From the IMG/VR virus record IMGVR_UViG_3300048574_000421: a stretch of DNA of 64,000 bases. One strand, given 5' to 3'. The notes below the pieces were generated by a model. That model saw nothing but the letters and a program-made list of their open reading frames with translations, made no database searches and had not been told where the DNA came from. Below are positions 7,051 through 47,053 of the stretch, in pieces (position 1 is the stretch's first letter; every line of letters starts with the position of its first letter). The position numbers and the translations under genes were made by a program. Source of the DNA: a virus. Taxonomy: Duplodnaviria > Heunggongvirae > Uroviricota > Caudoviricetes.

Positions 7051-10000
7051 GTGAAAATGGCATATAATGAACGCCTCATCGATTCAACATTAAATCAAGT
7101 AATTGATAATCTTGTAAATTATGTTGCAACATCGACAAATACAATTCGAATACCATCAAACATGACTGTCATAGGAAACATAACAGTTCCAAAATCGTGT
7201 TCACTATTCTTTTCAAATGGTGCTAGGTTGATTCATAGCACTTATACGCTTACATTTCATGGAAATATAGTAGGCGACCCAATGTGGCAAATATTTGATG
7301 GTACAGGAGTTGTAACGTTTAATAATGGCTCTGTACCTCATGTTAGACCTGAATGGTGGGGTGTAGATTATTCTGTAGATTGCACATCATCAGTCCAAAA
7401 AGCTATTAATTCAGTTTCTACTGGTGGTGTTGTAATTTTATCAGCAGCAAACTACATTATCAATGGTCCTCTTACAAATAATACGGGTGCTATCATCGTA
7501 AACTATAGCAACGTCAATTTATTTAATCTTCTTCCTGCAAGTTCTTTTTTTAGAGGCGTCACTTTTGGAGGTTCTCTAGAAGCTAAAACTGGTATTTTTA
7601 ACAGTGCATCAATTCCAAAACTTTCAAATCTTAATACTAATGGAGTTATAAGAACATCAGGAAGTGATGGAACATTAATTGTTGATACAGTTGGTGTTTT
7701 TGGACCTACAGGAGTTCAAGGTTCAACAGGAACACAAGGTTCTACTGGTCTAAAAGGTGAAACTGGTATCCAAGGTTTTACTGGACTATCAGGTGTTGGT
7801 GCTCAAGGTACTACAGGAATACAAGGTGAAACTGGTGTCAAAGGTGAAACTGGCATTCAAGGTGAAACAGGAATAAAAGGTGATACAGGAATACAAGGTA
7901 TCACAGGTATTGGTTATATAGGTTCTGATGGTGCAACAGGACTTCAAGGTGAGACTGGTATTCAGGGTCAAACTGGGACACAAGGTGAAACTGGATTACA
8001 AGGTAGAACGGGTATTGGTGGTTCTACAGGCTTTAGAGGATTTACTGGTGCTCAAGGTTTACAAGGCCAAACAGGTATACAAGGTCATACTGGATTACAA
8101 GGTACTATAGGAATTCAAGGTGCAACTGGTTCTCAAGGCTTTACAGGTTTTGGTGTAACTGGTAATCAAGGACATACAGGTCTTGGTTTCACAGGTTTGC
8201 AAGGACCTACAGGAGTACAAGGAACAACAGGTACGCAAGGTCAAACAGGCGTACAAGGTAGTACTGGTATAGGTTCTGTAGGAATACAAGGTGAAACAGG
8301 AGTTGGTTATACAGGAATTCAGGGACATACAGGTATCCAAGGCGACACAGGTTTGGGTGCAACAGGACTTCAAGGTATTACAGGAACAATTGGTGAAACA
8401 GGACTACAAGGTAGTACTGGAGTTCAAGGAGTAACAGGATTAGGTTATACTGGTATTCAAGGTCCTACTGGAGCTTATGGTGGTCCTCAAGGGGATACAG
8501 GCCTTCAAGGCGTTCAAGGACCTACTGGAGCTTATGGAGGTCCTCAAGGTGCTACTGGTCTGCAAGGCATACAAGGTCAAGGTGGACCCCAAGGTGATCA
8601 AGGAGAGACTGGTTTAGCTGGCATCGGAATTACTGGTGTTCAAGGTTTAACAGGTTCACAAGGACAAACAGGAATTCAAGGTCAAACTGGTTTAGGAATT
8701 CAAGGTCAAACTGGTGTACAAGGTGTTACTGGTACACCAGGAACTCAAGGAATTACTGGTATTCAGGGAAATACAGGTTTTGGTATTCAAGGAACAACTG
8801 GTTTACAAGGCATACAAGGCCAAGGTGGTCCTATAGGTGACAAAGGTGAAACAGGAGTTGGTTTTACAGGTATTCAGGGACAAACAGGACTTCAAGGTAT
8901 TCAAGGAAATACAGGTATTGGCGTTCAAGGTCCTACAGGAGCTTATGGTGGTCCTCAAGGTGAAACAGGAGTTAAAGGTGAAACAGGAGTTCAGGGAGAA
9001 ACAGGACTTCAAGGCATAAAAGGTGACACAGGAGTACAAGGCGACACTGGAATTCAAGGATTCACTGGTGTAAAAGGTGATACAGGTATAGGTTTCCAAG
9101 GAGAGACAGGAACTCAAGGCATACAAGGTTCTACTGGTACAATTGGAGAAACAGGATTACAAGGTATTACAGGATTAATTGGTTATACAGGAATTCAGGG
9201 AACACAAGGACCTACAGGAGCTTATGGTGGTCCTCAAGGTGAAACTGGTCTTCAAGGTCCTGCAGGAATTCAGGGCGAAACAGGTTCTTTAGGCTTAGGT
9301 GGATCTACAGGTTTACAAGGCTCAACAGGTCTTCAAGGCCTTGTAGGATCACAAGGTTTAACAGGTATACAAGGTGAAACAGGTCCGCAAGGTTACGGAG
9401 AAACTGGTCTTCAAGGCGTAACTGGGTCACAAGGTTCTGCAGGTCTCCAAGGAGAGACAGGAATACAAGGTAATACAGGTTTTGGACTTCAGGGCGTTAC
9501 TGGTTTCCAGGGAGAAACAGGATCACAAGGTGATAGTGGAGAAACAGGATTACAAGGTACAACTGGTCTAGAAGGAGTCACTGGTTTACAAGGCATAACA
9601 GGTTTTCAAGGAACAACAGGACTTTATGGTTTTACAGGAGTTCAGGGAGAAACAGGCTTACAAGGTAATGGTGCAACAGGATTACAGGGAACAACAGGTA
9701 TTCAAGGTTCTACAGGTTTTCAAGGAACAACAGGTCTTGCTGTAAATCCTTCTTCATTTTCTTTTAATAATGTTGCACGCTATGAAGTGATCGGAGCTTC
9801 TGGTGAAGAAGTATGGGTTGAGTCAAGTTCTACAGTTTATCAAAGGCTTACTTGGTCAAGAACAGGAACATCATTAACGATTGACTTGAATAATCATGGT
9901 CACACAGCAGGAAACAGAGTTATTGTAAGAAATACTAACGTTGATTATCAAGTTGCTACTATTGATTCAACCACACAAAACTCATTTGTTATAACGACAT

Positions 10001-10386
10001 CTAACACAGGTGATGCTTCAGGTACTGAAGGAGCATATACACTTGGTTTTACATTTTCTCATACAGGTTCTCCAAAAACTGGCGGAGTATTATCTGCTCC
10101 TACAGGTAGTCATGCTGATGTACAGTTAATTGCATTGAGAATAAGAACAGGTACACGTTCAAGCACTACTTACGAACTGACTGTTCCTGCAAGCGCTGTA
10201 AATGGTGCAGGTACTAATACTTCTTTAGGCAATTGCTTTATACCAGATTTTAATGTTCGTTCTGATAATGACAATCTTGGCGCTGTTGGTTCTACAATAG
10301 TTGTCAATAATTCATCATCAGGTTATAACGTTTTCCGTTTTGGAAACTTGGGATCACTATCGGTAATTATCGTAACTCATTTCTAA
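7051..10386 (+). CDS. Collagen-like virion fibre protein with a tailspike-like N-terminal region
   Basis: About 690 aa of (GxT-GxQ)n with short interruptions; N-terminal [19 protein letters not shown]; beta-rich C-terminal domain. Confidence 0.85.
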
Positions 10387-10405: not shown

Positions 10406-13400
10406 ATGGCAAGAATAATAAATGGGTCTCTTTATGTAAGCTCATATGACCCAACAAGTACTCCGGGAGAGTACACTTTCACTAATGCTGTATTTGATAA
10501 TCAAGCTGATGCAACAAATCTTGGTTCATTAGACATTCAAATTGGATTTATAGTTTATGTACCTGCTTTAGATCCTAATTTGATGACTCTTGTACCTGGT
10601 GTTTGTCATAGGTACAGAATTACATCAATACAAAATGCAGATGGGTATTACATATCAGCAACAATCTTTTGGGATGAAGATGGTGAACAAATAGATCTTC
10701 CTGCTTTTGAATCTTATGCTATTTGTTGCGAAAACACATCTGCTTTAGATTTAGGCTTATATGCTTCCAATGAAATTTATTCTAATTTACCTGGTGGCAT
10801 TGTTGCAAGTGCAGCTACTATAGATGCTAAACGGATTTTAGATAAACTTGGAGTAACAGGTTTAAACGGGTTGACAGGTCTCCAAGGAAATACTGGATTT
10901 CAAGGTCAAACTGGACTGCAGGGTACTACTGGTTTAAATGGCATACAAGGATCTACAGGTCTTGATGGTCTCCAAGGTAACACAGGTCTTCAAGGTGTTA
11001 CTGGTCAAAATGGAATCCAAGGTGACACAGGTTTAGTTGGGTCACAGGGTACTACTGGACTACAAGGTTTCCAAGGAACAACAGGTCTAACAGGTCAAAC
11101 TGGAATTGCTGGTAGTCAAGGAAACACTGGTTTGCAAGGAAGTACAGGATTAGAAGGTGCTCAAGGTATAACAGGTGTTCAGGGTAATACAGGCATCGAA
11201 GGTATACAAGGTACTACAGGTTTAGATGGTGTTCAGGGAATTACAGGTCTTCAAGGCCAAACAGGAGTTTCTGGTAATCAAGGTGCTACAGGTTCGCAAG
11301 GCAATACTGGTTTACAAGGTTTTACTGGTATTCAAGGAATTACTGGGTTTGTTGGCGAAACAGGCGTACAAGGTACAACTGGACTTATTGGTCTTCAAGG
11401 TCAAACAGGTTTAGATGGATCACAAGGTACTACTGGTCTTGTTGGTGAAACTGGCTTAAAAGGTGAACAAGGAGATACAGGTCTCCAAGGATTAACGGGA
11501 GTTCAAGGTGAAACAGGACTTCAAGGAATACAAGGTTTTACTGGTGTGCAAGGAGTTCAAGGAAATACTGGTACACAAGGAACTACAGGGATTCAAGGAG
11601 TACAAGGAGATACAGGTACTCAGGGAATTCAAGGAACTACAGGTTTACAGGGAGAAACTGGAATTCAAGGAGACACAGGTACACAAGGTACTCAGGGAGT
11701 TCAAGGAACTACAGGGTTAACAGGTGATCAAGGTTCTACTGGTCTCAATGGTCTACAAGGAGTTCAAGGAAGTACAGGACTGAAAGGAGATCAGGGTACT
11801 ACAGGTTTTATTGGTGAAACAGGTGTACAAGGTACTACAGGTCTTATTGGTATTCAGGGTTTTACTGGTTTAGAAGGATCACAAGGAAACACTGGATTTC
11901 AAGGTACAACTGGACTTATTGGTCTTCAAGGTCAAACAGGTTTAGAAGGTTCACAAGGTACAACAGGCTTAGATGGAATACAGGGTACTACTGGATTACA
12001 AGGCTCTACAGGTACTGAAGGAATTCAAGGTGAAACAGGCTTACAAGGTTTCACTGGTTTAGAAGGTATTCAAGGCGTTACAGGTCTTGATGGTATTCAA
12101 GGAGCTACAGGAATTCAAGGTTTTACGGGTTCTCAAGGTCAAACAGGTTTAAATGGTATACAGGGTAACACGGGAATACAAGGAATAACAGGTCTTGAAG
12201 GAATTCAAGGTACTACAGGTCAACAAGGTATTCAGGGCGAAACTGGTCTTGTTGGTGTAACAGGAATTCAAGGTATTACAGGTCTTATAGGAGAAACAGG
12301 TTCACAAGGTCGCACTGGTCTTCAAGGTTTTCAGGGTCAAACTGGAATTCAGGGTGTTACTGGTCTACAGGGAATAACAGGCATTATTGGATCAACAGGT
12401 TTTCAAGGCTTAACAGGTTTACAGGGTATTCAAGGTAATACAGGTACCCAAGGAATTCAGGGAGTAACAGGATTACAAGGTACTACAGGACTAGAAGGAC
12501 TCCAAGGTCAAACTGGCTTAGATGGAATACAGGGTGACACTGGTATTCAAGGATCTACAGGCTTACAAGGTGCACAGGGCAATACTGGACTTCAGGGATT
12601 TACTGGAATACAAGGCATACAAGGTTTAACTGGATTGATTGGCAGTCAAGGTCAAACAGGAATTGAGGGTATTCAAGGAGACACAGGAGTTCAAGGTCAA
12701 ACAGGATTACAAGGACTTGTAGGTCAAACTGGTATACAAGGTGATACAGGAATTCAAGGAGGAACTGGTGTCCAAGGATTTCAGGGAATCACTGGTATTC
12801 AAGGGACAACAGGTCTAATTGGTATTCAAGGTAGTACAGGTATACAAGGTTTTACTGGTTCTAATGGATTACAAGGTACTACAGGTACACAAGGTTCAAC
12901 TGGTGTCCAAGGAATTACAGGTTTGATTGGATCTACTGGTTTACAAGGTCTAGACGGATTAGAGGGTCAACAAGGTTTAACTGGAATACAAGGATCAACA
13001 GGAATTCAAGGTGTTACAGGTTTAACTGGATCAACTGGAATACAAGGTCTTCAAGGTACACAAGGAGTAACAGGACTCATAGGTCTTACGGGTCAAACTG
13101 GTATTCAGGGAATAACAGGTGCGATAGGAATAACAGGTATTCAAGGCTCTACTGGATTACAAGGACAAACAGGACTCCAAGGTATACAAGGTATTACAGG
13201 TTTGAGAGGTTTTACAGGTCTACAAGGTCAAACTGGAATTCAAGGAGCTACTGGAATACAGGGAACAACAGGTGTACAAGGTCAAACAGGAATTCAAGGA
13301 ACAACAGGTTTGATTGGTACTACAGGATTAAATGGTATTCAAGGAGTAACAGGTTTTGTAGGACAAACCGGTATACAAGGTATTCAAGGTTCAACTGGTG

Positions 13401-13855
13401 TACAAGGTCAAACTGGTATTCAAGGTGTAACAGGCTTACAGGGTGTGACAGGACTTGTTGGCCAAACAGGTATTCAAGGTGTAACGGGTATAGGTTTTGT
13501 CACTAATAATTATGTTACTAGTACAACTACAGCAACTACTACAAGTACTACATTTGTTCTTGCTACAGGTATGACAGTTACACCTGCTTCAGGAACATAT
13601 TTAGTGTTATTTTCTGGAAGCATTTCACATTCAAGTAATTCAGCAACTACTTATATGACTATATATAGTGGTGGTTCACAAGTAGCTGCTTCAGAACAAA
13701 GATATAATCCAGGACAAACTAACGATCCTAGTACTTTTTGTACTACAGCTGTAGTGACTGTAAATGGCTCACAAGCAATTGCAGGATATTGGAGAGTCAC
13801 AGCAAATACAGGCTCTATGTATCAGCGACAACTTATAGTTTTAAAATTAGCTTAA
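10406..13855 (+). CDS. Collagen-like virion fibre protein with a BclA/C1q-like C-terminal domain
   Basis: About 880 aa of near-continuous Gly-X-Y (approx. 10850-13495); C-terminal GTYLVLFSG jelly-roll-like domain. Confidence 0.85.
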   Translation: MARIINGSLYVSSYDPTSTPGEYTFTNAVFDNQADATNLGSLDIQIGFIVYVPALDPNLMTLVPGVCHRYRITSIQNADGYYISATIFWDEDGEQIDLPAFESYAICCENTSALDLGLYASNEIYSNLPGGIVASAATIDAKRILDKLGVTGLNGLTGLQGNTGFQGQTGLQGTTGLNGIQGSTGLDGLQGNTGLQGVTGQNGIQGDTGLVGSQGTTGLQGFQGTTGLTGQTGIAGSQGNTGLQGSTGLEGAQGITGVQGNTGIEGIQGTTGLDGVQGITGLQGQTGVSGNQGATGSQGNTGLQGFTGIQGITGFVGETGVQGTTGLIGLQGQTGLDGSQGTTGLVGETGLKGEQGDTGLQGLTGVQGETGLQGIQGFTGVQGVQGNTGTQGTTGIQGVQGDTGTQGIQGTTGLQGETGIQGDTGTQGTQGVQGTTGLTGDQGSTGLNGLQGVQGSTGLKGDQGTTGFIGETGVQGTTGLIGIQGFTGLEGSQGNTGFQGTTGLIGLQGQTGLEGSQGTTGLDGIQGTTGLQGSTGTEGIQGETGLQGFTGLEGIQGVTGLDGIQGATGIQGFTGSQGQTGLNGIQGNTGIQGITGLEGIQGTTGQQGIQGETGLVGVTGIQGITGLIGETGSQGRTGLQGFQGQTGIQGVTGLQGITGIIGSTGFQGLTGLQGIQGNTGTQGIQGVTGLQGTTGLEGLQGQTGLDGIQGDTGIQGSTGLQGAQGNTGLQGFTGIQGIQGLTGLIGSQGQTGIEGIQGDTGVQGQTGLQGLVGQTGIQGDTGIQGGTGVQGFQGITGIQGTTGLIGIQGSTGIQGFTGSNGLQGTTGTQGSTGVQGITGLIGSTGLQGLDGLEGQQGLTGIQGSTGIQGVTGLTGSTGIQGLQGTQGVTGLIGLTGQTGIQGITGAIGITGIQGSTGLQGQTGLQGIQGITGLRGFTGLQGQTGIQGATGIQGTTGVQGQTGIQGTTGLIGTTGLNGIQGVTGFVGQTGIQGIQGSTGVQGQTGIQGVTGLQGVTGLVGQTGIQGVTGIGFVTNNYVTSTTTATTTSTTFVLATGMTVTPASGTYLVLFSGSISHSSNSATTYMTIYSGGSQVAASEQRYNPGQTNDPSTFCTTAVVTVNGSQAIAGYWRVTANTGSMYQRQLIVLKLA

Positions 13856-13873: not shown

Positions 13874-15964
13874 ATGCAAGAAATAACTTACAATAAAGAA
13901 TGTAATTCAGAATTACTCACACTTGAAATAGAAAATTCTGGAATAGTAAAAGGAGAACATTTTTTTGGTGTCTCTTGTGAAATAGGACAGCAATATACTG
14001 TTGTATATGCAGCTGATAGTATTACACAACAACAAAGAGATACTATAGATTCTGTTGTATCAGTACACAATCCTAACTCAATACCTTACGCAAAGTTAGT
14101 TAGACAACAATATTTAAGATCTTATGGAGAAGCACTCATTATTTCACAAGGTTATTCATTAGATATACAAAATTCACTATTAACTATGTATTCAGGTAGT
14201 GTTAAACTAAAACCAAACTGTATGCAATACATCCAAACATGGGTGAATTGGATTAATATTGTAGACGCAGAAATAAAAAACAAACAAACACAAGTAGATG
14301 CACAAACTACAATAGAGCAAATTAATTCGATTGAAATAGATAAACCAGCATTGATTGCTCTTGATCCTCATGTTACTATAAATGATGCTTTAGCTATTAC
14401 AGATTCTTCTGATCTTAACGATTTTATGGACGACAGGGTAACTGTTACAGATACATATACAAATAAAACAGGCCCTTATTATTTAATGGAAATTTTAAAT
14501 CTCAGAAGAGAGATTTTTAATGATACAGAGAATCCTTTATATGTATTGAATCATACACCCATTATTGGTCCTTCAGGTCATATTCAAAATCATGCAGACA
14601 GAATTGTCAATTTAGAAAATATTCATGGTAAAAGTGGTTGGCATCAACAACAAGTTTTAAAATCTTTGTACGAAAAACCTATTGATATATTAATATATAA
14701 AGGTTCGCTTGTAAATTTCAATAATTCTAAAAATCAATCGATAAACGAAAATATAGCTCAAGATTTTTCACGTTATGACATTCTTGTTTTTAATGATGGG
14801 TATCAAGACCCAACTCATATAGACTATACAAATACGCAAATAATTTTATCAAGAATTAGATCGCTTAATCCCAACACTCTCATCTTTGGTATTGTTTCTG
14901 CAACAGATAGTCTTGCTATTTTTAATACAAAAGTAGGCCAATGGAATACACTTCAAATAAATGGCATTTTTATTGATAAAGCAGGTTATGACTTTGGTGT
15001 ACTTAGAACTGACTTTAATACCCGTGTTGATTCAGTTAAAGCACTATCTTTTTCAAATATAGTTTTTGCAAACTCAAAAAAAATGAGTCACATTCTTGGA
15101 ACTGATAATGACCCATTATATCCTAACTCAATATACAATACCAGTTTAGTTTCTTCACATTTGAGTAATGCTGATTGGGTATTACTTGAAAGTTTTGCTA
15201 TTGACACTTCTAATTATGGTGAAGGTTATGAAAACTCTTCTACATGGGCTAGTCGAAGTGTTGAAATGAATTCGCTTAGATATAATTTTGGAATAAATGT
15301 TGCTTCTTTCGGAATTATAAATAACAATAATGAAAAAGGTAATGATTTATATAAATTTGGTCTCGTATCTTCTTTAATGTGGTCGCTAAATGCTTATGGT
15401 ACGTCAGACACTGATTATGGCTTAAATAGCTCTACTGTCAAGTTCTGGGATAAACCCAATCTTTCTGGAATAGGAAAAACCTACAGTATTAATCCTTCAG
15501 TACAATCAGGACTTAACAACACTTTTCATCGTTTTTCTGACGATGTCCATTTTATCCTAGACTTCACTTCAAGTAATCAAACATGTTACATAAATATAAA
15601 AGAGATTTCTCGTGTTGAAGGAGGCTTTGGGATCACTATTGATGGATCTGGAGAAGTTATAACAACAGGTAATAAAGGCATAATCATAGCTCCCTATGCA
15701 ATGACTATAACTGGTTATACTATAGTTGCTGACGAACTAGGGAGCGTACAAATCGATATTTGGAAAAAATCTTCATTACCTGTTACTATTTCTGATAGTA
15801 TTTGTGGTGGAAATTTTATAACATTAAGCAATTCTCAAAGCAATATTGTAGAAACTATATCTTCATGGAATACAAAATTTGAAAAAAACGACTTTATAAT
15901 TTTTTATGTTAGTTCTATAACAAGTATTAAAAAACTAACGCTTATAGTGAAAGGAATAAAATAA
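13874..15964 (+). CDS. Virion protein with a central glycoside-hydrolase-like TIM barrel (GH114/GH135-like)
   Basis: YDILVF.DG..DP.H..Y; NPNTLIFG; W....INGIFIDKAGYDFG; N-terminus resembles fibre assembly chaperones. Confidence 0.5.
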   Translation: MQEITYNKECNSELLTLEIENSGIVKGEHFFGVSCEIGQQYTVVYAADSITQQQRDTIDSVVSVHNPNSIPYAKLVRQQYLRSYGEALIISQGYSLDIQNSLLTMYSGSVKLKPNCMQYIQTWVNWINIVDAEIKNKQTQVDAQTTIEQINSIEIDKPALIALDPHVTINDALAITDSSDLNDFMDDRVTVTDTYTNKTGPYYLMEILNLRREIFNDTENPLYVLNHTPIIGPSGHIQNHADRIVNLENIHGKSGWHQQQVLKSLYEKPIDILIYKGSLVNFNNSKNQSINENIAQDFSRYDILVFNDGYQDPTHIDYTNTQIILSRIRSLNPNTLIFGIVSATDSLAIFNTKVGQWNTLQINGIFIDKAGYDFGVLRTDFNTRVDSVKALSFSNIVFANSKKMSHILGTDNDPLYPNSIYNTSLVSSHLSNADWVLLESFAIDTSNYGEGYENSSTWASRSVEMNSLRYNFGINVASFGIINNNNEKGNDLYKFGLVSSLMWSLNAYGTSDTDYGLNSSTVKFWDKPNLSGIGKTYSINPSVQSGLNNTFHRFSDDVHFILDFTSSNQTCYINIKEISRVEGGFGITIDGSGEVITTGNKGIIIAPYAMTITGYTIVADELGSVQIDIWKKSSLPVTISDSICGGNFITLSNSQSNIVETISSWNTKFEKNDFIIFYVSSITSIKKLTLIVKGIK

Positions 15965-18585: not shown

Positions 18586-18774
18586 ATGGAAATAAATATT
18601 TTAAAAGATAACGAAATTCTCATAATAGCTGAAACTGAATTTGAGAGAAGTTTTTGTACTCTTCTTGAAGGAAAAATTTTTGATACTACAGTTAAACGGG
18701 GTTTGTCTCCTGCTGATATTGTAGGGATTAAATTAACACCAAGACAAGAAAAGAAAGAAAAATGTCAAGCTTAA
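18586..18774 (+). CDS. Hypothetical protein
   Basis: 62 aa, AGGA RBS, overlaps the next gene. Confidence 0.55.
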   Translation: MEINILKDNEILIIAETEFERSFCTLLEGKIFDTTVKRGLSPADIVGIKLTPRQEKKEKCQA

Positions 18775-20312
18775 GTTTTGCATTAATAGTAAAAAACGAA
18801 GAAGCAAGTCTACAAAAATGTTTAGACTCTATCAAATCTATTGCTGACGAAATAATTATTGTTGACACTGGGTCAACTGATAGAACAAAAGAAATTGCAT
18901 TACAATATACTAATAAAGTTTATGATTTCATTTGGATAGATGATTTTGCAGCAGCAAGAAATTTTGCTTTTAGTCTTTGTGAAAAAGAGTGGATTTTCTG
19001 GCTTGATGCTGATGATGAAATTCTACCTAAAGACAAAGAAAAAATAAAAAACTTAGATTTTTCTCCTGACAAAGAAGTATTTATTTGCAAATATCATTAT
19101 TCACATGATCAGTTTGGTGTACCCGAATGCACTCTTGAACGTGAAAGAATTATTAAACGCTCTCTTAATTTAAAATGGGAAAAAGCAATTCACGAGTATA
19201 TTGCTATTAATGGAAGAAACATAACAAGAACAGACATTGAAATCCATCATTGGAAAAAACACGGAACATCAGAAAGAAACATACGAATTCTAGAGAAAAT
19301 CGTAGAAAAAGACCAAGATCCAAGAAATCTATTTTATCTTGGAAAAGAGTATCTTGATTTTGGGAAAACAGAAGATGCAATCAAATATCTTGAAAGATTT
19401 GTTGTTTCAAATGGTTGGTGGGAAGATATATTTACAGCATACCAATTACTTGCAAAAGCATATCTTTTCTTAAAAAACGAAAACAAATTTTTCGAAAACA
19501 TCTTTCTATCTATCAAAATAGAGCCTCGTCGTGCAGAACCTTTTTATGATATTGGAGATTTTTATTGTTCAAAAAGTGATTGGGCAAGAGCAATACATTA
19601 TTATGAAATTTGTTTAAATACAAAACGTTCATCTGAGTTGATGTCAACATTCTATCCTCAATATTATACATGGTTGCCAGCTCTTTCATTATGTAATTGC
19701 TATAACAATATTGGTGACATTCAAAAAGCTTATGAATACAATGAGTTGTTTCTAAAATTTAGACCAAATGATTCAAGAGGCATACACAATAGAGCTATTT
19801 TAAAAAATAGTCCACTAAGACTAATTAGAAAAGATGGACAAGGTAAAAAATTGAATCTTGGTTGTGGTAATAAACGGATGGAAGGATTTGTCAATTGTGA
19901 CATTGTAGATATAAAAGAAGTCGATGAAATATTCAATTTTTATGAAATACCCTATCAAGATAACACAATTTCTGAAATCTCTAGTGAACATGCGCTTGAA
20001 CATGTTCCAAAAGAGAAAGCTAAACAAGCAATAAAAGAATGGTTTAGAGTTCTCAAACCAGGTGGAGTTCTTAATCTTTATATTCCAGATTTAGAACTAT
20101 GTGCTCTTGGTTATGTGAATGGTGATAACAAAAGAACAGTAAATGGATATCCTGAAAAAGAGTGGTATAAAATGACTTTGTTTGGTGCTCAAACAGCAGA
20201 AAATGGTAGTGATGCTGAACACCAGTTTCATTTGACAGGATTTTCTAAAAACGAAATCAGAGAGATACTTGAAGATGCAGGTTTTATTATAGATTACTTA
20301 AATAATTACTAG
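18762..20312 (+). CDS. GT2 glycosyltransferase + TPR repeats + class I SAM methyltransferase (C-terminally truncated)
   Basis: LIVKNEE..CLDS..DEIIIVDTGSTD..DDFAAARNFA..WLDADD (SunS/SgtA-like GT2); TPR helices; LNLGCG..EHALEH..RVLKPGG. Confidence 0.9.
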   Translation: MSSLSFALIVKNEEASLQKCLDSIKSIADEIIIVDTGSTDRTKEIALQYTNKVYDFIWIDDFAAARNFAFSLCEKEWIFWLDADDEILPKDKEKIKNLDFSPDKEVFICKYHYSHDQFGVPECTLERERIIKRSLNLKWEKAIHEYIAINGRNITRTDIEIHHWKKHGTSERNIRILEKIVEKDQDPRNLFYLGKEYLDFGKTEDAIKYLERFVVSNGWWEDIFTAYQLLAKAYLFLKNENKFFENIFLSIKIEPRRAEPFYDIGDFYCSKSDWARAIHYYEICLNTKRSSELMSTFYPQYYTWLPALSLCNCYNNIGDIQKAYEYNELFLKFRPNDSRGIHNRAILKNSPLRLIRKDGQGKKLNLGCGNKRMEGFVNCDIVDIKEVDEIFNFYEIPYQDNTISEISSEHALEHVPKEKAKQAIKEWFRVLKPGGVLNLYIPDLELCALGYVNGDNKRTVNGYPEKEWYKMTLFGAQTAENGSDAEHQFHLTGFSKNEIREILEDAGFIIDYLNNY

Positions 20313-20334: not shown

Positions 20335-20643
20335 TTGTTTTTATGTATTGTCACATTAACACATAACAAAGACAGTGTGTTAATTAAAACTCCTGTGTTC
20401 ATTCAACAGCAAAGCAGCATAGAAAAAAACGATTGGTGTGTTTTTTCAGCATCAAAAGACTCTTCTTTTTTAAAAGTATCTTATCAAGAAAAATATGGTT
20501 TTGAAAAAACTATATTTTGTAAAGTTATTTTTGAAAATACAAAAACTGGTGAATATAAATGTATATCGCCAGAACTTGGTTGTTTAATTCTTCAAAAGTC
20601 AAACTTAAACTCTTTCAAAGTGACAGAAGTGAAAAATGAATAG
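20335..20643 (+). CDS. Hypothetical protein inserted between GT fragments
   Basis: 102-aa ORF, TTG start, overlaps the next start. Confidence 0.5.
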   Translation: MFLCIVTLTHNKDSVLIKTPVFIQQQSSIEKNDWCVFSASKDSSFLKVSYQEKYGFEKTIFCKVIFENTKTGEYKCISPELGCLILQKSNLNSFKVTEVKNE

Positions 20644-21073
20644 TTATGGTACACCTTCAATAGAAATACGTGCATTCAAACCAGTCTCTGTAATTAAAAT
20701 AGGTTGGATAGCACCTGAAAATTGGCTTGCTGCTCAAACACGTATAAGAGTTTTACGTGTCAACAAATGTCTTAGAAGTGTGGGATATCAATCTTTTATT
20801 GTTCAAGATGCACAAGAAATAATTGATAAAAATTATGATATTGCAATAATTGGAAAAAGCTTTGATGAAAGCAGTTATAATAGTATCAAGTTACTTAAGC
20901 AACATAATAAAAAAGTAATATGTGATATATGCGAAGACGTTATTGGTTGGCCTTGGGTAAATGAAATTTTAAGAGATTCTGATAAGATTGTTTGCTGTTC
21001 ATATAGACTTGAAGAAAAAGCCAAAACAGTAAACATGAACACTATAGTTATAGAAGATGCATTCGAAATATGA
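20636..21073 (+). CDS. Methyltransferase last strand + GT-B N-terminal half
   Basis: SYGTPSIEIRAFKP, then AAQTRIRV..YDIAIIGK..KVICDICED..DKIVCCS..L....IEDAFE. Confidence 0.7.
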   Translation: MNSYGTPSIEIRAFKPVSVIKIGWIAPENWLAAQTRIRVLRVNKCLRSVGYQSFIVQDAQEIIDKNYDIAIIGKSFDESSYNSIKLLKQHNKKVICDICEDVIGWPWVNEILRDSDKIVCCSYRLEEKAKTVNMNTIVIEDAFEI

Positions 21074-21420
21074 GCGTTCCCATTAAATCATTAATCATAG
21101 ATGCTTTTGCAAAAATTGAACGACAAGATCAAAGAGTAGTAAGAATAAGAGCAAATTATAGATCTGCGTATGCTATTAAACAGAGTTTCAACAGTGAATT
21201 TGACGAGATAACAAACGAACACTTACAACGTTTAGTTCCTAGTTGGTTTGGTTCTCTTTTTGGTGCACATATCTATATTGACAATGAGTTAGAACAAGTC
21301 GTTTTCGAAGGCGATCACGGCGCTACAACAAAACTTACATTTGAAACAACAAAAAAAGAACCTGTCATTAAACTACAAGATACAAAAAGAAAATTCAAAT
21401 TTATATTGGAGGAAAGATGA
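21070..21420 (+). CDS. Stand-alone paralog of the major capsid protein A-domain
   Basis: DAFAKIERQDQRVVRIRANYR..FDEIT..LFGAHIYI aligns with MCP DAFAEVEKHDLRVARMFMNAR..LDPVT..IWGADIIV. Confidence 0.7.
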   Translation: MSVPIKSLIIDAFAKIERQDQRVVRIRANYRSAYAIKQSFNSEFDEITNEHLQRLVPSWFGSLFGAHIYIDNELEQVVFEGDHGATTKLTFETTKKEPVIKLQDTKRKFKFILEER

Positions 21421-22130
21421 TGAATAACAAAGATACTTTTGTAGAAAAACTTGACGAATGCGGCGAAATCAAATATGAAATGTCTGAAGTTCATAGTAGA
21501 ATTCTTGGTAAACTCAAAGCTGTCTATGGTCTTGTTTTTAAACGCGAAAAACGTGATTTTCTTTCTCTTAAAAACATGCAATATTTTAAAGGTGGTGTTG
21601 CTTCTCCAGATGCACGTCCAAGACTTCACGAAACTCTCGACACATTTATCAATTTAGCTAATCATTATGAATTTCTTGGTGATGATGAATTAAAGTCTTA
21701 CCTTGAAGCTCATGGCATTTCAATCACTATTACTACTCCTAATCTTGAAGATGGTCCTGTTGTTGTCGCAAAAGAAGATAACAAAGAGCTTGAAAGATCA
21801 TGGCAATTCGCAATGTCTGGCGAAACAATGCCTGGAACAAAAAAAGAAGTACTAAACGCTATTCTTGATAGATCAATTGAAACACAAAAAGCAATTGAAG
21901 ATAAAAAAGAAGAAATAGAGAAAAAAGCTGAAGATGTTAGTCTTGAATGTCAAGTTAAAAAGCCTTTCTTTTTGAAAGCTGTAGCAATAAAAGTTCAAGA
22001 ACTTAAGAAAAAATCTGTCGATAATGAACTTAAAAAAATAGAAGATGATATTGAAGCATCAAATGATATCATTGGTATTTTTGACGCACTAAAAACAGTA
22101 GAAGCGCAAGAACAGGAAGAAAAAGCATAA
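21417..22130 (+). CDS. Hypothetical helical protein; C-terminal part weakly like T4 DsbA/GapR dsDNA-binding proteins
   Basis: 237 aa, GGAGG RBS; IEDKKEEIEKKAEDVSLECQVKKPFFLKAV. Confidence 0.55.
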   Translation: MMNNKDTFVEKLDECGEIKYEMSEVHSRILGKLKAVYGLVFKREKRDFLSLKNMQYFKGGVASPDARPRLHETLDTFINLANHYEFLGDDELKSYLEAHGISITITTPNLEDGPVVVAKEDNKELERSWQFAMSGETMPGTKKEVLNAILDRSIETQKAIEDKKEEIEKKAEDVSLECQVKKPFFLKAVAIKVQELKKKSVDNELKKIEDDIEASNDIIGIFDALKTVEAQEQEEKA

Positions 22131-22132
22131 AA

Positions 22133-23407
22133 ATGAAATCTATCTATTTTTTTGGATATGGAGGTTCTAGCGTCTTGTTAGAACCTTTAAGACCTATTAT
22201 TGAAAAACTGGGTATGAAGCTCATTACTATCCATGAATGGGAAGATGCTGACATAAAATGGGAACTTTCAACATGGCTTGAGCATCTTAAAAAAGCTGAT
22301 ATTATAATTATACCTGCAAATTATGAAATACAGCCTTGTAAAAGCAATACACGTTTGACACAAGCTCTTTCTTTAGGGAAACCCGTAATATGTTCTCCTC
22401 TTGATGCTTATTGGAAAGTAAATGAAAAATTTCCCGGGTGTTGCATTTTTGCGTCAAATCTTTCTGAATGGGAATTTCATCTTACAAGTTTAAGAGACGA
22501 CGACAATTTATGTAAAATCATATCTGAAAGAGCTTTAAAAGCTGCCCAAAGTTATTCAATTGAAGAAATAACGAAAAAATGGATTAATGTTATTAATTAT
22601 ACTGATTCTTTAGATATTGTCATTCCTTCATATAACAATGTTGAATATTTGAAGTTATGTATACAATCTATAAGAAAAAATACAAAATCATATAACATCA
22701 TTATAAGTGATGCAGGTAGCAATGCTTCAACTTGGGAGTTTTATAGAATTCTCAAAAATGTCACTATACTTGGTGAACAAGACAAAAGATTAAATTTTTC
22801 ACAAACATGTAATGCTGGTATCAAGCACTCTACTTCAGAATATTTTGTTCTTTTAAATTCCGACACTATTGTTTCTAAAAATTGGGACGAAAATCTTCTC
22901 AAAAAAATGAAGGCTGATCAAAATCTAGCAGCTTGTGGTGTGCTTTCAAATTGTGATCGTTATTGGTTGCATGATGCTCCTGGTAAGCCTACTTATCCAA
23001 TGAGTATTCCTGGTTTAGACCTTGTGCCAGGAATGAAAGCGTGTCAGTTAGAAGACAGACTAGAAAACTTATATAGTTTTATGGACAAATCAAATCAATC
23101 ACACGCTGGGACTCTCGTTGAACAGGAATGGGTAGCGTACTATGCAACCATGTTTAATAAAAAAATCTTTAACGAAGTTGGTTTGTTAGACCCAGGTTTT
23201 AAGAACGGGTGTGAAGATTTAGATCATTGTATTAGAATTAAAAAGATGAAATATAAAATAGCGCAAGCTGTTGATAGTTTTGTTTTCCATTTTGGCGGAA
23301 TTACTCGTGGAAGTTATGAAATTGAAGGTAGAGAACATTATCATCAAGAAGATAGAGAAAATCATGCTTACTTAAAACAAAAGTGGGGTGATTATCAAAA
23401 AGTGTAG
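22133..23407 (+). CDS. GT-B C-terminal half fused to a GT2 glycosyltransferase
   Basis: FFGYGG..KSNTRLTQALSLGKPVICSP (GT4-like C domain); DIVIPSYNN..LLNSDT..GCEDLD. Confidence 0.85.
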   Translation: MKSIYFFGYGGSSVLLEPLRPIIEKLGMKLITIHEWEDADIKWELSTWLEHLKKADIIIIPANYEIQPCKSNTRLTQALSLGKPVICSPLDAYWKVNEKFPGCCIFASNLSEWEFHLTSLRDDDNLCKIISERALKAAQSYSIEEITKKWINVINYTDSLDIVIPSYNNVEYLKLCIQSIRKNTKSYNIIISDAGSNASTWEFYRILKNVTILGEQDKRLNFSQTCNAGIKHSTSEYFVLLNSDTIVSKNWDENLLKKMKADQNLAACGVLSNCDRYWLHDAPGKPTYPMSIPGLDLVPGMKACQLEDRLENLYSFMDKSNQSHAGTLVEQEWVAYYATMFNKKIFNEVGLLDPGFKNGCEDLDHCIRIKKMKYKIAQAVDSFVFHFGGITRGSYEIEGREHYHQEDRENHAYLKQKWGDYQKV

Positions 23408-24122
23408 TGTAGATAAACATGGACCAATCATAGAAGAATATTCTGTTCAAGCTAAGATTCATCCTGACATTTCAGGTACACACTGTTGGATTTTGTCAGC
23501 TAAAAGCTATTGCAGTTTTTCAAAATATAAAAAGATTTTTTGGGAAAAAGCAAAAGGAATTAGACCCAAAAATTTATTTCTTTGTCATAAATGCGATAAC
23601 ATAAACGGGTTTTGCGTAAATCCTGATCATCTTTTTTTGGGCACAGCAAAAGACAATTCACAAGATGCATCAAAAAAGAAAAGAATGCACGGTTCATATT
23701 CTGAAGATGTAAAAGATAAAAAAAGGGGCAAAAAACTTTCTGAAGAAACTAAACAAAAAATTTCAAAAAAAGTGAACAAATTTTATAATGAAAATATTGA
23801 TGCAAAAATAAATACTTCAAGAGCAACACAATTATCAATGTATGACGACTTTGGCAATGTAAAAAGAAAATATAAAAATAGTTTAGGAATACAAAATATT
23901 TGTTTAAAAAACAACAAATATCAAGTTAGTGCAACAAAAAACTTAAATAACGAAAACGAATCGACAAGTTTGTTAAACACATTAAAATGTTTTGATAATG
24001 ATTTGAAATTTAAACCACCTAAAAAAATATTTCAAGTATCTGTATATAAAAATTTTTTTAATTTAAACGAAGCAATTACTTACAAAGAAACTTTATTACC
24101 AATTATTCACAAAACATTATGA
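23388..24122 (+). CDS. HNH homing endonuclease with NUMOD3-type repeat
   Basis: CW...LCHKCDN...CVNPDHLFLGTAKDNSQD; RGKKLSEETKQKIS. Confidence 0.85.
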   Translation: MIIKKCSVDKHGPIIEEYSVQAKIHPDISGTHCWILSAKSYCSFSKYKKIFWEKAKGIRPKNLFLCHKCDNINGFCVNPDHLFLGTAKDNSQDASKKKRMHGSYSEDVKDKKRGKKLSEETKQKISKKVNKFYNENIDAKINTSRATQLSMYDDFGNVKRKYKNSLGIQNICLKNNKYQVSATKNLNNENESTSLLNTLKCFDNDLKFKPPKKIFQVSVYKNFFNLNEAITYKETLLPIIHKTL

Positions 24123-25192
24123 AAAAATCTATTTGTTTTTTTTCAGGACCCTCTTTTGAAAAATGGAACTATAATTCTTGTGAAACATCAGGAATTGGAG
24201 GTTCAGAAACTTGGGCTATAAAATTGTCTGAAGAACTTGCTACATTAGGTTACAGAGTTTTGAATTTCGCAGACTGTTCAATTGAAGGTAAATTCAATGG
24301 TGTCGAATGGTTTCATTTTTCTAAACTCACTGAATTTATAGAGTACAACTGGTTTGACTATTTTATTTCATCAAGAACAACAGATGTTTTTCGTTTGAAT
24401 ATTAGAGCAGGTAAAAAATTCACAATCATTCATGATATTTGGTTGTCATCAGAAAATACAATTCCTTATCAAGAAAAAGTCGATAAATTTCTTGTTCTTT
24501 CTGAATGGCATAAACAGTTTGTAAGTCAACATCATGGATTGTCTTTAGATCGTTTAATTATGACAACTAACGGTATTGATCTAAAAAGATACGAAAAGTC
24601 AGTCGAAAGAAATCCTTATAGATTACATTGGAGTTCAAGTCTAGATAGAGGTCTTGACACTCTTCTCTATTTATTTGACTTTATTAAGCAAAGTGTCCCA
24701 AAATTAGAATTACATATTTTTTATGGAATAGATAATTGGTTAAAAGTTGCTAAATATAAACATGGTGAATCTGAGAAAATAAGAAAACTCCAAGAAGCTA
24801 TGAAAAAACCTGGTGTTTTTTATCATGGAAGAGTTGGCCAAGAACAACTTGCCGAAGAACAACTTAAAGCTTCATTATGGGCATATCCAACTGATTTTGA
24901 AGAGACAAATTGTATTACTGCAATAGAATGTCAAGCTGCAGGTTTACCAGTTATTGCTTCAAATTACGCAGGATTACAAACAACAGTTAATAGTTCTGGT
25001 ATTTTATTAGGGCAAGGCAGAAAAGGTGAATCATCACTTTTAGATTATAGACTCGAATTTGTTTCTAAATGCATAGAGTTATTAACAAATAAAGCTCTAT
25101 GGCAAGAATGGTCGCAAAAAAGCCTCGAAAATGCTAGAAAATTTGAGTGGAGCAAAATTGCTAAACAGTGGTCAGAACAAATTTTGTGTTAA
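24119..25192 (+). CDS. GT4-like (GT-B) glycosyltransferase
   Basis: GIGGSE, LSEWHK, NGID, SSLDRGL, ETNCITAIECQAAGLPVI. Confidence 0.9.
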   Translation: MKKSICFFSGPSFEKWNYNSCETSGIGGSETWAIKLSEELATLGYRVLNFADCSIEGKFNGVEWFHFSKLTEFIEYNWFDYFISSRTTDVFRLNIRAGKKFTIIHDIWLSSENTIPYQEKVDKFLVLSEWHKQFVSQHHGLSLDRLIMTTNGIDLKRYEKSVERNPYRLHWSSSLDRGLDTLLYLFDFIKQSVPKLELHIFYGIDNWLKVAKYKHGESEKIRKLQEAMKKPGVFYHGRVGQEQLAEEQLKASLWAYPTDFEETNCITAIECQAAGLPVIASNYAGLQTTVNSSGILLGQGRKGESSLLDYRLEFVSKCIELLTNKALWQEWSQKSLENARKFEWSKIAKQWSEQILC

Positions 25193-44941: not shown

Positions 44942-46021
44942 TTATTGTTTAATATACAATGAAGGATGTGTTCTTAAATTCTTTACACTTGTCTCCCATA
45001 AAGGAATCAAAACTGAATATTGTTCTTCTATTTTTCTCCATTCAATTGAATCAGCGTATAAAATCTTAATTTTTGCTGTAGGATACTGTTCTCTTGTTAA
45101 TTCAATTTTTCTTATATCTCTTCCCATGAAGTTCTTTGTCTCAACCCACTCATCAGTTTGCGACAAATAAAAATCTATCCAACAATTCTCTTTTCCCTTA
45201 TCAGAAATCACTTCAAAAGGTTTTAACTCAAACATGTATTTGATTTTATTATAAATAAGATATCTAGCATAATTAGCTTCAAGTGTAGAACGCACACTAT
45301 GTCCAATGTCGTTTCTATAACCATGTATTGAAAATGCAGTTTTAATATCTGGCTGTTTTCCAAATCTATGGTTTTTACTTCCCATTCTACTTTCACTCAT
45401 CTTGCTCTTTGTCTGTTCTGTATGTGTTCTTCCTTTATTATGATGAATGATGTTTTTTGAATTGTTTTTCTTTATTGTATCACTAATGCTTTTCCTAGAT
45501 TCTTCTGAATGACATTTGCCATAAAAAGGATTTTTTTCTCCCTTGAAAATTTCTTTACTTACACTTTTGCCTGCTATAGTAGTCTTCTCTATAAAATTGT
45601 TACTATACAAAGGGTCAGGATATTTAGAAGTATATTCTTGTTTTGTAATTTTGTGATCTATTTTTAAGTGAAAGTCTATTCTTCCTTTCCTCATCCCACA
45701 TATTTTACACTCAACCCATTCATTAGAATTTGTACTATTAAAAATCAAATGACTATGTTTAGGGTCTTTAGAATAAAAACAATGCTTATATAAAGAAGGC
45801 TGTGTTACACATGCTTCTCCACATATCTCGCACTTGAATTGTTTTGTTTCTTGATTTGTTTTTCTTCTTGAAGCTCCACGTTTCATTCTCTTTTCTTCAT
45901 CAATCACATATTTAACATTAAACATTTCTTTATACTCTTGAATTGACAACTTGTGATCTAATCTAATATGCTGCTGTAGATCTCCTCTCTCTTCCTGACA
46001 TCCTTCAATTAAACATTTCAT
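44942..46021 (-). CDS. Homing-type endonuclease: Zn fingers + NUMOD3 + PD-(D/E)XK domain (start MKCLIEG at 46021)
   Basis: CxxC..H..H repeats, NPFYGKCHSEES, RSTLEANYARYL..FE...IDFYL...VETK; AGGAG RBS before 46021. Confidence 0.8.
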   Translation of the reverse strand: MKCLIEGCQEERGDLQQHIRLDHKLSIQEYKEMFNVKYVIDEEKRMKRGASRRKTNQETKQFKCEICGEACVTQPSLYKHCFYSKDPKHSHLIFNSTNSNEWVECKICGMRKGRIDFHLKIDHKITKQEYTSKYPDPLYSNNFIEKTTIAGKSVSKEIFKGEKNPFYGKCHSEESRKSISDTIKKNNSKNIIHHNKGRTHTEQTKSKMSESRMGSKNHRFGKQPDIKTAFSIHGYRNDIGHSVRSTLEANYARYLIYNKIKYMFELKPFEVISDKGKENCWIDFYLSQTDEWVETKNFMGRDIRKIELTREQYPTAKIKILYADSIEWRKIEEQYSVLIPLWETSVKNLRTHPSLYIKQ

Positions 46022-46048
46022 ATTGCTCCTTTGTTTTATAGAAGTAAT

Positions 46049-46077
46049 ATAATACTTTAAATCTAACAACTTGTCAA
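46049..46077 (-). promoter_or_regulatory. Sigma70-type promoter for the endonuclease gene
   Basis: Minus strand TTGACA-N17-TATTAT. Confidence 0.7.
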
Positions 46078-46174: not shown

Positions 46175-47053
46175 TTATGGACGAGTGACTTCAATGAGAC
46201 TTACGCCTCTTGGGTTCCATACACCAATTCCAATTTGTTCAAAAATTGACCAACCAATTAAACGATTGTCAGGATCATCAGCTGGAAGAACTGTAACATC
46301 AATTCTCTGAGGCATAACAGCAAGGAATTTCTCCTCTGTGCAAACAAAGATTGTACCAATAGGCACGACTCTGCTTACGATAATGTCTGCTCCCCAGATC
46401 TGAGCCATCAAACCAGTGTTTAACAAACTCTTCTGTGTTACTGGGTCCAACTGATCACGACCAAATTTACGAATGTCAGAGTAATCTCTAGCATTCATGA
46501 ACATACGAGCAACGCGAAGGTCATGTTTTTCAACTTCTGCAAAAGCATCAGCAAGTGCATCTCTGTCAAGAGAGCCTGAAGCAGGTGTAATTGCGTTGAA
46601 AGGAAGACCTGTGTTAGGATTGATCTGTGCTGCAGCAACCTGGAGAGCGCTGAAACCAAGATCATCTTCACTTGCCTGAATGTCCTGTTTTGCTTTGTCC
46701 TGAGCACGGTCGATCAGGTTATATCTGCGTTCTTTGATCTGTGTGAACGGAATCTTCGGGTTTGAAGCAAGTTCAAACAGAGGAACGAGAATTCTTTTAC
46801 CTTTTACGATTGTCTCAGGTGTCTGACCTTCTTCACCAATAACGATTGCCGGAACATCGACGTCTCTGTCATAGTAAGGAAGAGCACCCTGTGGCAGGGG
46901 ATCTACAACTGCTGCACGACGGAACACACCTTCGTAATCAAGACGTTCACGAAGAGGATTCTGCATTGAAGCAGCAAGCTTCATCTTACCTTCTGGGGTA
47001 AGCAAGAGCTTCTCAATGGCTCTTTCTTTATCAGCTGCTGTCGTAATTTTCAT
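46175..47053 (-). CDS. Major capsid protein (HK97 fold, Bxz1/Myrna-like)
   Basis: LAASMQNPLRERLDYEG..R..DPLPQG...YD; ELASNPKI; IWGADIIVS..VP.GTIF; GWSIFEQIG; position after scaffold and decoration genes; strong terminator. Confidence 0.9.
   Translation of the reverse strand: MKITTAADKERAIEKLLLTPEGKMKLAASMQNPLRERLDYEGVFRRAAVVDPLPQGALPYYDRDVDVPAIVIGEEGQTPETIVKGKRILVPLFELASNPKIPFTQIKERRYNLIDRAQDKAKQDIQASEDDLGFSALQVAAAQINPNTGLPFNAITPASGSLDRDALADAFAEVEKHDLRVARMFMNARDYSDIRKFGRDQLDPVTQKSLLNTGLMAQIWGADIIVSRVVPIGTIFVCTEEKFLAVMPQRIDVTVLPADDPDNRLIGWSIFEQIGIGVWNPRGVSLIEVTRP

Follow-up and report, generated by a model that had tools for sequence, protein, structure and literature searches.

A stand-alone HK97-fold A-domain descended from the major capsid protein in the glycosyltransferase gene cluster of a phage-G-like huge phage

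Why should a huge phage carry, among its glycosyltransferase (GT) genes, a small separate gene that resembles a single domain of its own major capsid protein (MCP)? The question is raised by an open reading frame (ORF) of 116 aa, here called mini-A, in a stretch of 64,000 nucleotides (the window) from the IMG/VR virus record IMGVR_UViG_3300048574_000421. We show that mini-A is a stand-alone HK97-fold A-domain descended from a phage-G-type MCP and that it is a fixed member of a cluster of GT and methyltransferase (MT) genes, and we tentatively propose that it serves the products of these genes as an adaptor. Among capsid folds, that of HK97 is the most widespread, and mini-A bears both on whether its A-domain can exist as an autonomous module and on the source of the archaeal A-domain encapsulins. 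The window is part of a 210,938-bp record (G000), with related genomes of up to 424-470 kb, and its MCP is 48% identical to gp27 of Bacillus phage G and 51% identical to the MCP of a 485-kb uncultured phage; from its sequence, the virus is classed as a phage-G-like huge phage. The mini-A and MCP genes, which lie 25 kb apart on opposite strands, comprise the following parts, described by ORF call, family membership and, for mini-A, the ratio of nonsynonymous to synonymous substitution rates (dN/dS).

21070..21420, + strand: mini-A gene, 116 aa, an HK97 A-domain standing alone and a paralogue of the MCP
21085..21285, + strand: mini-A residues 6-72, homologous in sequence to MCP 164-228 (two A-domain helices and the first strands)
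21070..21348, + strand: mini-A residues 1-93, A-domain core with a confident fold in the AlphaFold2 (AF2) model
21349..21381, + strand: mini-A residues 94-104, a variable K/E-rich linker with low predicted order
21382..21417, + strand: mini-A residues 105-116, the conserved C-terminal peptide D-x-K-x-K-F-K/R-F-I/L-x-E
46175..47053, - strand: MCP gene, 292 aa, phage G gp27 type (phrog_2522, PF05065)
46370..46564, - strand: MCP residues 164-228, the part of the A-domain to which mini-A is homologous

Analysis of the relationship between mini-A and the MCP revealed a homology that becomes visible at the level of the family. Taken by itself, the pairwise alignment was barely above chance and unusable alone, since single-pair BLASTP gave a marginal match (E 0.024, 14/56 identities, with a 21-residue gap). 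Adding relatives of mini-A in the form of a family profile made the homology decisive: aligned with a profile of 30 MCP sequences, the family profile placed ORF residues 6-72 on MCP residues 164-228 (hhalign 98.1%, E 8.7e-14). When run over the 210,938-bp genome, the hidden Markov model (HMM) of the family matched only mini-A itself and the virus's own MCP (E 3.8e-12), and the MCP HMM matched every mini-A family member at HMM positions 159-230. Among all 177,635 distinct sequences of the PDB, the family profile found one match, residues 158-223 of the phage G gp27 MCP (6wkk_A, E 3.6e-9), and in whole-genome searches it also matched the MCPs of phage G, Tunturi_5 and LR745208. Two motifs, D-A-F-x-x-I-E-K-x-D-x-R-V and aromatic-G-A, are common to mini-A and the MCP. 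General family models and single-sequence searches were far less informative. Pfam and PHROG scans of the single mini-A protein gave no meaningful match; two of 15 family members matched phrog_2522 and none of the 15 reached a Pfam capsid model; and tblastn of mini-A against 50,697 phage records returned chance Ralstonia matches only (E at least 2).

The copies of this domain differ widely in how far they have departed from the MCP. Over the approximately 70 shared residues, the window's mini-A is 28% identical to MCPs, the family members P0125 and P0132 are 35-41% identical, and a 165-aa paralogue in the related genome G002, which lacks the K-F-K-F tail, is 42-51% identical (~50% to MCPs) and matches the MCP HMM at positions 162-246 with E 1.3e-28. 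Of the 18 mini-A sequences in a tree built from the shared segment, 16 stood apart from the MCPs with moderate support (80/91), and the other two, both from G002, grouped with the MCPs. The copies form a series graded by identity to a specific phage MCP, from ~50% (G002) down to about 20-28%, which provides direct support for an origin by truncation of a capsid gene.

Structure prediction pointed to the same domain. An AF2 model built from 15 mini-A family members, with no MCP rows in the alignment, reached a predicted local distance difference test (pLDDT) score of 81 and a predicted TM-score (pTM) of 0.67 and was confident over residues 1-93; an earlier run with three sequences was poor (pLDDT 43) and was dropped in favor of this one. 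The model consists of two helices packed against a small sheet, its elements being helix 5-17, strand 23-28, helix 30-39, strand 44-46, helix 50-55 and strands 59-63, 66-70, 77-81 and 86-89. In an exhaustive structural search of 48,161 PDB representatives, HK97-fold capsid or encapsulin chains made up 48 of the 50 best entries (Z 5.4-9.1), the remaining two being PF0899 (2pk8, Z 7.7) and a de novo designed protein, and Foldseek against the PDB gave the same ranking with weak E-values, headed by T4 gp24, 2pk8 and the NF5 capsid. Residues 1-93 of the model align within residues 250-383 of HK97 gp5, which form its A-domain. This domain alone was matched by sequence and by structure, and the N-arm, the E-loop and the P-domain with its spine helix were not found in mini-A, which therefore cannot serve as an ordinary subunit of a capsid shell. 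A predicted complex of the MCP with mini-A scored 0.16 against a mark of 0.32 in a run made without controls.

Searches of BFVD and the ESM Atlas with the model listed small uncharacterised phage proteins (95-153 aa) beside full MCPs, with weak scores. The weak look-alikes came from the jumbo phages Erwinia Y3 (two), PaBG, Noxifer and Motura, and several Atlas clusters resembling the mini-A fold carry the partial labels Phage_capsid_3 or Phage_capsid_4; the proteins of Y3, PaBG and Noxifer and these clusters scored E 3e-3 to 0.1 and TM 0.5-0.64. No MCP fragment was detectable by sequence in the Y3-like phages AD1 and pEa_SNUABM_1.

These results bear out much of the original prediction, made from the window alone, that the first ~80 aa of the ORF run colinear with residues ~163-230 of the MCP, that this segment is a free-standing HK97 A-domain from which the rest of the capsid fold is gone, and that the ORF lies 25 kb from the MCP gene on the opposite strand. 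The profile alignment supplies the first point, the profiles together with the structural matches of the AF2 model supply the second, and the coordinates supply the third; the comparison of profile and structure with the MCP A-domain that had been suggested as a check gave a significant match.

Is the gene maintained? Exhaustive protein searches recovered a small mini-A family of 107-118 aa, a range that genome and locus searches widened to 97-127 aa, and scans of IMG/VR and metagenomes with the GT alignment added only L016 and a tandem mini-A paralogue in L015; a search for related loci with the GT2-TPR-MT protein by itself gave no match. Two long repeat proteins, P0127 and P0133, were judged spurious on reading and left out. 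The family alignment contains no conserved stretch of 7-10 columns; its best-conserved segment is helix 1 (I-I-D-x-F-x-K-I-E), which is common to the MCP. The reading frame was intact at every locus seen, and dN/dS was 0.14 in comparison with a 95%-identical copy (L001) and 0.34 in comparison with a 63%-identical copy (L006), more distant pairs being saturated. Because mini-A is intact throughout and dN/dS lies at 0.14-0.34, it is not a decaying fragment, and these sequence comparisons show a family that is conserved and under purifying selection in phage-G-like huge phages. Mini-A nevertheless evolves far faster than its neighbors, being ~32% identical where the first enzyme of the cluster, GT2-TPR-MT, is ~70% identical and the flanking 145-aa and 237-aa ORFs are 60-71% and 68-73% identical, respectively.

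Mini-A sits in a tightly packed block of genes on the same strand. Its start ATG overlaps the stop codon of the upstream ORF (ATGA), and its own stop codon overlaps the ATG of the downstream ORF. The other genes of the module are as follows.

18762..20312, + strand: GT2-TPR-SAM methyltransferase (GT2-TPR-MT), 516 aa, a conserved gene with which the module begins
20335..20643, + strand: conserved 102-aa ORF, whose homologue in L017 has an N-terminal hydrophobic segment
20636..21073, + strand: 145-aa ORF immediately preceding mini-A and, in L098 and L017, joined to the C-terminal end of GT2-TPR-MT
21417..22130, + strand: 237-aa ORF of no known family with a K/E-rich C-terminal region
22133..23407, + strand: 424-aa protein with an N-terminal region like the C-terminal half of GT-B enzymes (read by eye), followed by a GT2 domain
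23388..24122, + strand: HNH-like ORF between the 424-aa gene and the GT1/GT4-type gene
24119..25192, + strand: GT1/GT4-type glycosyltransferase, the last gene of the module

Comparison of loci showed that this arrangement is retained. The order GT2-TPR-MT, ~102-119-aa ORF, 145-aa ORF, mini-A, 237-aa ORF, GT is kept in contigs in which mini-A is 29-35% identical to that of the window; some of these contigs are short, the first small ORF was missed by gene calling on a few, and not every gene is present at every locus. The 237-aa ORF lies directly downstream of mini-A at every GT-cluster locus with a comparable downstream gene. Mini-A had originally been described as one of the ORFs that interrupt the GT cluster; synteny that extends down to ~30% identity contradicts this and shows that it is a fixed member. 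The same prediction had allowed for a decaying fragment, recognizable by dN/dS near 1 and frequent disruption; the values found were 0.14-0.34, and no disrupted copy was seen.

One of the neighbors is a part of an enzyme of the cluster. In L098:1440-3419 (659 aa) and L017:5992-8073 (693 aa), GT2-TPR-MT and the 145-aa ORF form one protein with the latter at its C-terminal end, indicating that the 145-aa ORF is a detached domain of the enzyme, and these fusions partly support a view in which the genes of the cluster are the separated parts of a single multidomain GT. An Atlas feature search of the 145-aa protein gave a weak lead to the N-terminal half of GT-B enzymes (Glyco_transf_4/Gtf3_N at 0.88), which we treat as a lead only; a Phage_DsbA match at 0.84, obtained in the feature searches of the 237-aa and 145-aa proteins, was dismissed as weak. 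Paralogues of the 102-, 145- and 237-aa ORFs were found neither elsewhere in the genome nor near the extra mini-A copies described below, which means that these neighbors are not additional pieces of the capsid. Directly upstream of the cluster, and on its strand, lie the genes of two very large proteins with collagen-triple-helix repeats (7051-10386 and 10406-13855; Pfam Collagen, E 2e-75 and 1e-140), which are plausible substrates for glycosylation.

The cluster also contains genes of mobile type. An optional insert encoding a 187-aa HNH-related protein lies between the 145-aa gene and mini-A in L006:3563-4126 and L015:5045-5608, and its similarity to the C-terminal part of the window's HNH-like ORF at 23388-24122 (E 2.5e-5) suggests that endonuclease-type genes move within the GT cluster. 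Elsewhere in the window, a 375-aa ORF adjoining the MCP gene (44942-46069, - strand) was read by eye as a zinc-finger/NUMOD-type homing-endonuclease-like protein; if it is one, it would be a possible vehicle for copying pieces of the capsid gene. In the 469-kb IMG/VR record G002, the slot held by mini-A in the window is occupied by a 249-aa ORF (L017:8083-8832). This ORF matches other pieces of the MCP, namely MCP 42-100, which is the region of the E-loop (hhalign 95.8%, E 7e-9), and MCP 246-280, and the A-domain helices are absent from it; by these matches it represents a second kind of capsid-derived gene in the GT cluster.

Outside helix 1, the best-conserved part of mini-A is its tail, with the motif D-x-K-x-K-F-K/R-F-I/L-x-E, in which K108 and F111 are invariant and which is absent from the MCP. 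The same tail (K-A-K-F-K/R-F-L), following a similar K/E-rich linker, ends a membrane protein with four transmembrane segments encoded at G000:188155-188634 (- strand), the counterpart of which in the related genome G001 lies at L194:6344-6850 (- strand). Because the motif ends this second protein as well and occurs only five times in the 149,658 residues of six-frame ORFs of the G000 genome, we suggest that it may be a portable docking peptide with a common partner for mini-A and the membrane protein.

Comparison of six related genomes (G000, G001, G002, phage G, LR745208 and Tunturi_5) revealed that mini-A and GT2-TPR-MT are both present in G000, G001 and G002 and both missing from phage G and LR745208. 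The number of mini-A copies ranges from 0 to 3-4 per genome. Three extra copies in G002 (L193:8346-8843, 9394-9732 and 14211-14579) lie inside a second cluster of the composition MT/GT10/FkbM-MT/MT-GT2/GT2, and an extra copy in G001 (L192:9270-9626) adjoins SAM methyltransferases.

A further stand-alone A-domain was found in a more distant setting. Achromobacter phage Motura gp073 (YP_009903914.1, 116 aa, annotated as hypothetical; L202:5114-5464, NC_049849.1 209113-209463) matches residues 222-291 of Motura's own MCP by BLASTP (E 7e-14, 31% over 70 aa). Its relation to the mini-A family is weak (hhalign E 2.5e-4) and it gave no match to the G-type MCP profile; copies were absent from the Motura relatives found, and related jumbo phages gave MCP matches only. 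Motura gp073 is thus probably of independent origin, and its confirmation as a copy of its own phage's A-domain leads us to suggest that stand-alone A-domains seem to arise repeatedly in jumbo phages.

What, then, might mini-A do? The reading that we favor, at a probability of about 45%, is that mini-A, itself non-catalytic and derived from the MCP, acts as an adaptor or scaffold in the machinery for virion glycans. It would be one subunit, without enzyme activity, of a machinery for virion-surface glycans that the neighboring genes encode and whose parts would be GT2-TPR-MT, a split GT-B, GT2 and GT1, next to the collagen-repeat fiber genes. The retained A-domain helices, which are capsomer-contact elements of HK97-fold proteins, could give mini-A capsomer-like contacts with itself or with the MCP, and the flexible linker and the C-terminal K-x-K-F-K-F-I peptide could dock a partner shared with the four-transmembrane protein that bears the same tail. 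A possible parallel is offered by the archaeal Family 4 A-domain encapsulins, which are encoded downstream of an enzyme and complexed with it. The strongest signal from gene context favors this proposal over a capsid-sensor decoy: mini-A is a fixed part of GT/MT clusters at three kinds of loci, is translationally coupled and co-occurs with GT2-TPR-MT.

Several observations weigh against an adaptor of the glycan machinery. Tunturi_5 has a distant GT2-TPR gene yet no mini-A, the cluster of L098 does not contain mini-A at the corresponding slot, and the mini-A copies elsewhere in G001 and G002 lack the 102-, 145- and 237-aa genes beside them. Motura gp073 lies among exonuclease, PhoH and clamp-loader genes, a replication-type setting, and not among GT genes, so that the class of stand-alone A-domains need not be tied to glycosylation. 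The GT/MT clusters of huge phages, in which HNH genes are present, may simply be plastic regions that collect accessory genes, and the fast evolution of mini-A relative to its neighbors would also fit a conflict-type role. The Motura case and this fast evolution keep both capsid-centered and conflict readings alive.

Mini-A might instead be directed at the capsid, binding MCP monomers, capsomers or procapsids through the retained A-domain contacts, either to chaperone or modulate assembly or to become a minor component of the virion, for example at the capsomer centers or special vertices of a very large capsid, with its position in the GT cluster reflecting only late co-expression with the surface-fiber genes. 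We consider this possible, though somewhat unlikely. The most conserved segment of the family, helix 1, is common to the MCP, and A-domain helices form the main intra-capsomer contacts and facet interface (Andreas and Giessen, PMC8346489). Motura's independent copy outside a GT context suggests that the common denominator is the MCP, and the corresponding slot in L017 holds another MCP piece, the E-loop. Nevertheless, phage G, LR745208 and Tunturi_5 build the same capsid type without mini-A, and a copy number that varies from none to three or four would be unusual for an assembly factor. A different role as an anti-defense decoy, in which the isolated A-domain would mimic an MCP surface sensed by host immunity and titrate or pre-empt the sensors, seems to us improbable. 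The defense systems CapRel and Lit respond to capsid proteins, mini-A is a true MCP mimic by profile, fold and PDB-wide match, and its fast evolution, tandem duplication (L015) and variable copy number are common features of conflict genes. However, selection in close comparisons is purifying rather than diversifying, the window's copy, at only ~28% identity to its own MCP in the segment that the two have in common, would be a poor mimic of a sensor epitope, and the gene lies in a late-looking structural/GT module and not among early genes.

A broader reading, which we regard as rather unlikely, would unite the stand-alone A-domains of the window, G001, G002, Motura and possibly the look-alikes of Y3, PaBG and Noxifer as recurrent, functionally autonomous MCP mimics of jumbo phages. 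The window's copy would then be a capsid-surface stand-in, either a decoy that titrates capsid-sensing immunity or a ring-forming scaffold that shows capsomer geometry to the phage's own glycosylation enzymes. Least probable of all, and largely refuted, is a functionless remnant, in which homing-endonuclease traffic would have copied part of the MCP gene and left it to drift. The HNH-type ORFs in the cluster would suit such an origin, and Motura shows that fragments of this kind can arise independently, but the frames are intact at all loci down to ~30% identity with length, position and start/stop overlaps conserved, dN/dS is low (0.14-0.34), the fold predicted by AF2 is compact and confident, and a conserved C-terminal motif that is not in the MCP has been added.

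Whichever role applies, the mini-A family offers a tractable system with a defined set of partners, comprising glycosyl- and methyltransferases, collagen-like fibers and a shared putative docking peptide at the C-terminus. Should mini-A indeed be linked to virion glycosylation, a phage glycosylation machinery would for the first time be seen to include a non-catalytic component derived from the capsid; should the decoy reading be true, mini-A would represent a new anti-defense principle.

Our literature search found no report of stand-alone MCP A-domain genes in phages, and the nearest systems each share part of what is seen here. The phage G gp27-type MCP (PDB 6WKK, phrog_2522, PF05065/PF25209) is homologous to mini-A over the A-domain segment but also has the N-arm, E-loop, spine helix and P-domain that mini-A lacks, and the window's copy is only 28% identical to it over ~70 residues. 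The T4 gp24 vertex protein and the SaPIbov5 size-redirecting protein Ccm are likewise MCP-derived and act beside the main MCP, T4 gp24 being the top Foldseek match of the mini-A model and a SaPIbov5 procapsid chain appearing in the exhaustive structural search; in contrast to mini-A, which is one third of the fold, both keep the whole HK97 fold and are built in as capsomer subunits. Mycobacteriophage virion-glycosylation cassettes of the Che8 and Corndog types contain GT and MT genes beside structural genes and are thought to glycosylate virion proteins. They resemble the window's cluster in that phage GT and MT genes adjoin structural genes, glycosylation by the latter being predicted from its genes, and we know of no MCP-derived small protein in these cassettes. 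Motura gp073 is, like mini-A, a 116-aa stand-alone A-domain copy of its own phage's MCP, but it lacks a GT context and is only weakly related to mini-A.

The most extensive likeness is to the Family 4 'A-domain encapsulins' (PF08967, DUF1884), proteins of ~100 aa that consist of the HK97 A-domain alone, in which a four-stranded sheet has two helices around it (Andreas and Giessen 2021, PMC8346489). These are encoded downstream of enzymes in four described kinds of operon (with hydrogenase, OsmC, GAPDH or DeoC), and one forms a stable complex with GAPDH (PMC8346489). Mini-A differs in that it is phage-encoded, whereas Family 4 proteins come from thermophilic archaea or Bacteroidetes; in the homology of its sequence to one particular lineage of phage MCPs, for which Family 4 has no equivalent; in its associated enzymes, which are glycosyl- and methyltransferases and not those of the four operon types; and in its extra linker and conserved C-terminal peptide. 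PF08967 was matched neither by the window's mini-A (E <= 1) nor by the 15 family members (E <= 10). Like Family 4 proteins, however, mini-A is a small protein made of the A-domain only, as judged from the elements of the AF2 model. It lies downstream of GT2-TPR-MT and of the GT-derived ORF of 145 aa, the stop codon of which overlaps its start; the order is conserved, and its model aligns with PF0899 of Pyrococcus furiosus (2pk8) over 79 residues (Z 7.7, root-mean-square deviation 3.7; Foldseek E 0.085, probability 0.98). Family 4 A-domain encapsulins thus represent the closest known kind to mini-A, which, as seen here from its genes and a structural model, is a phage counterpart of them.

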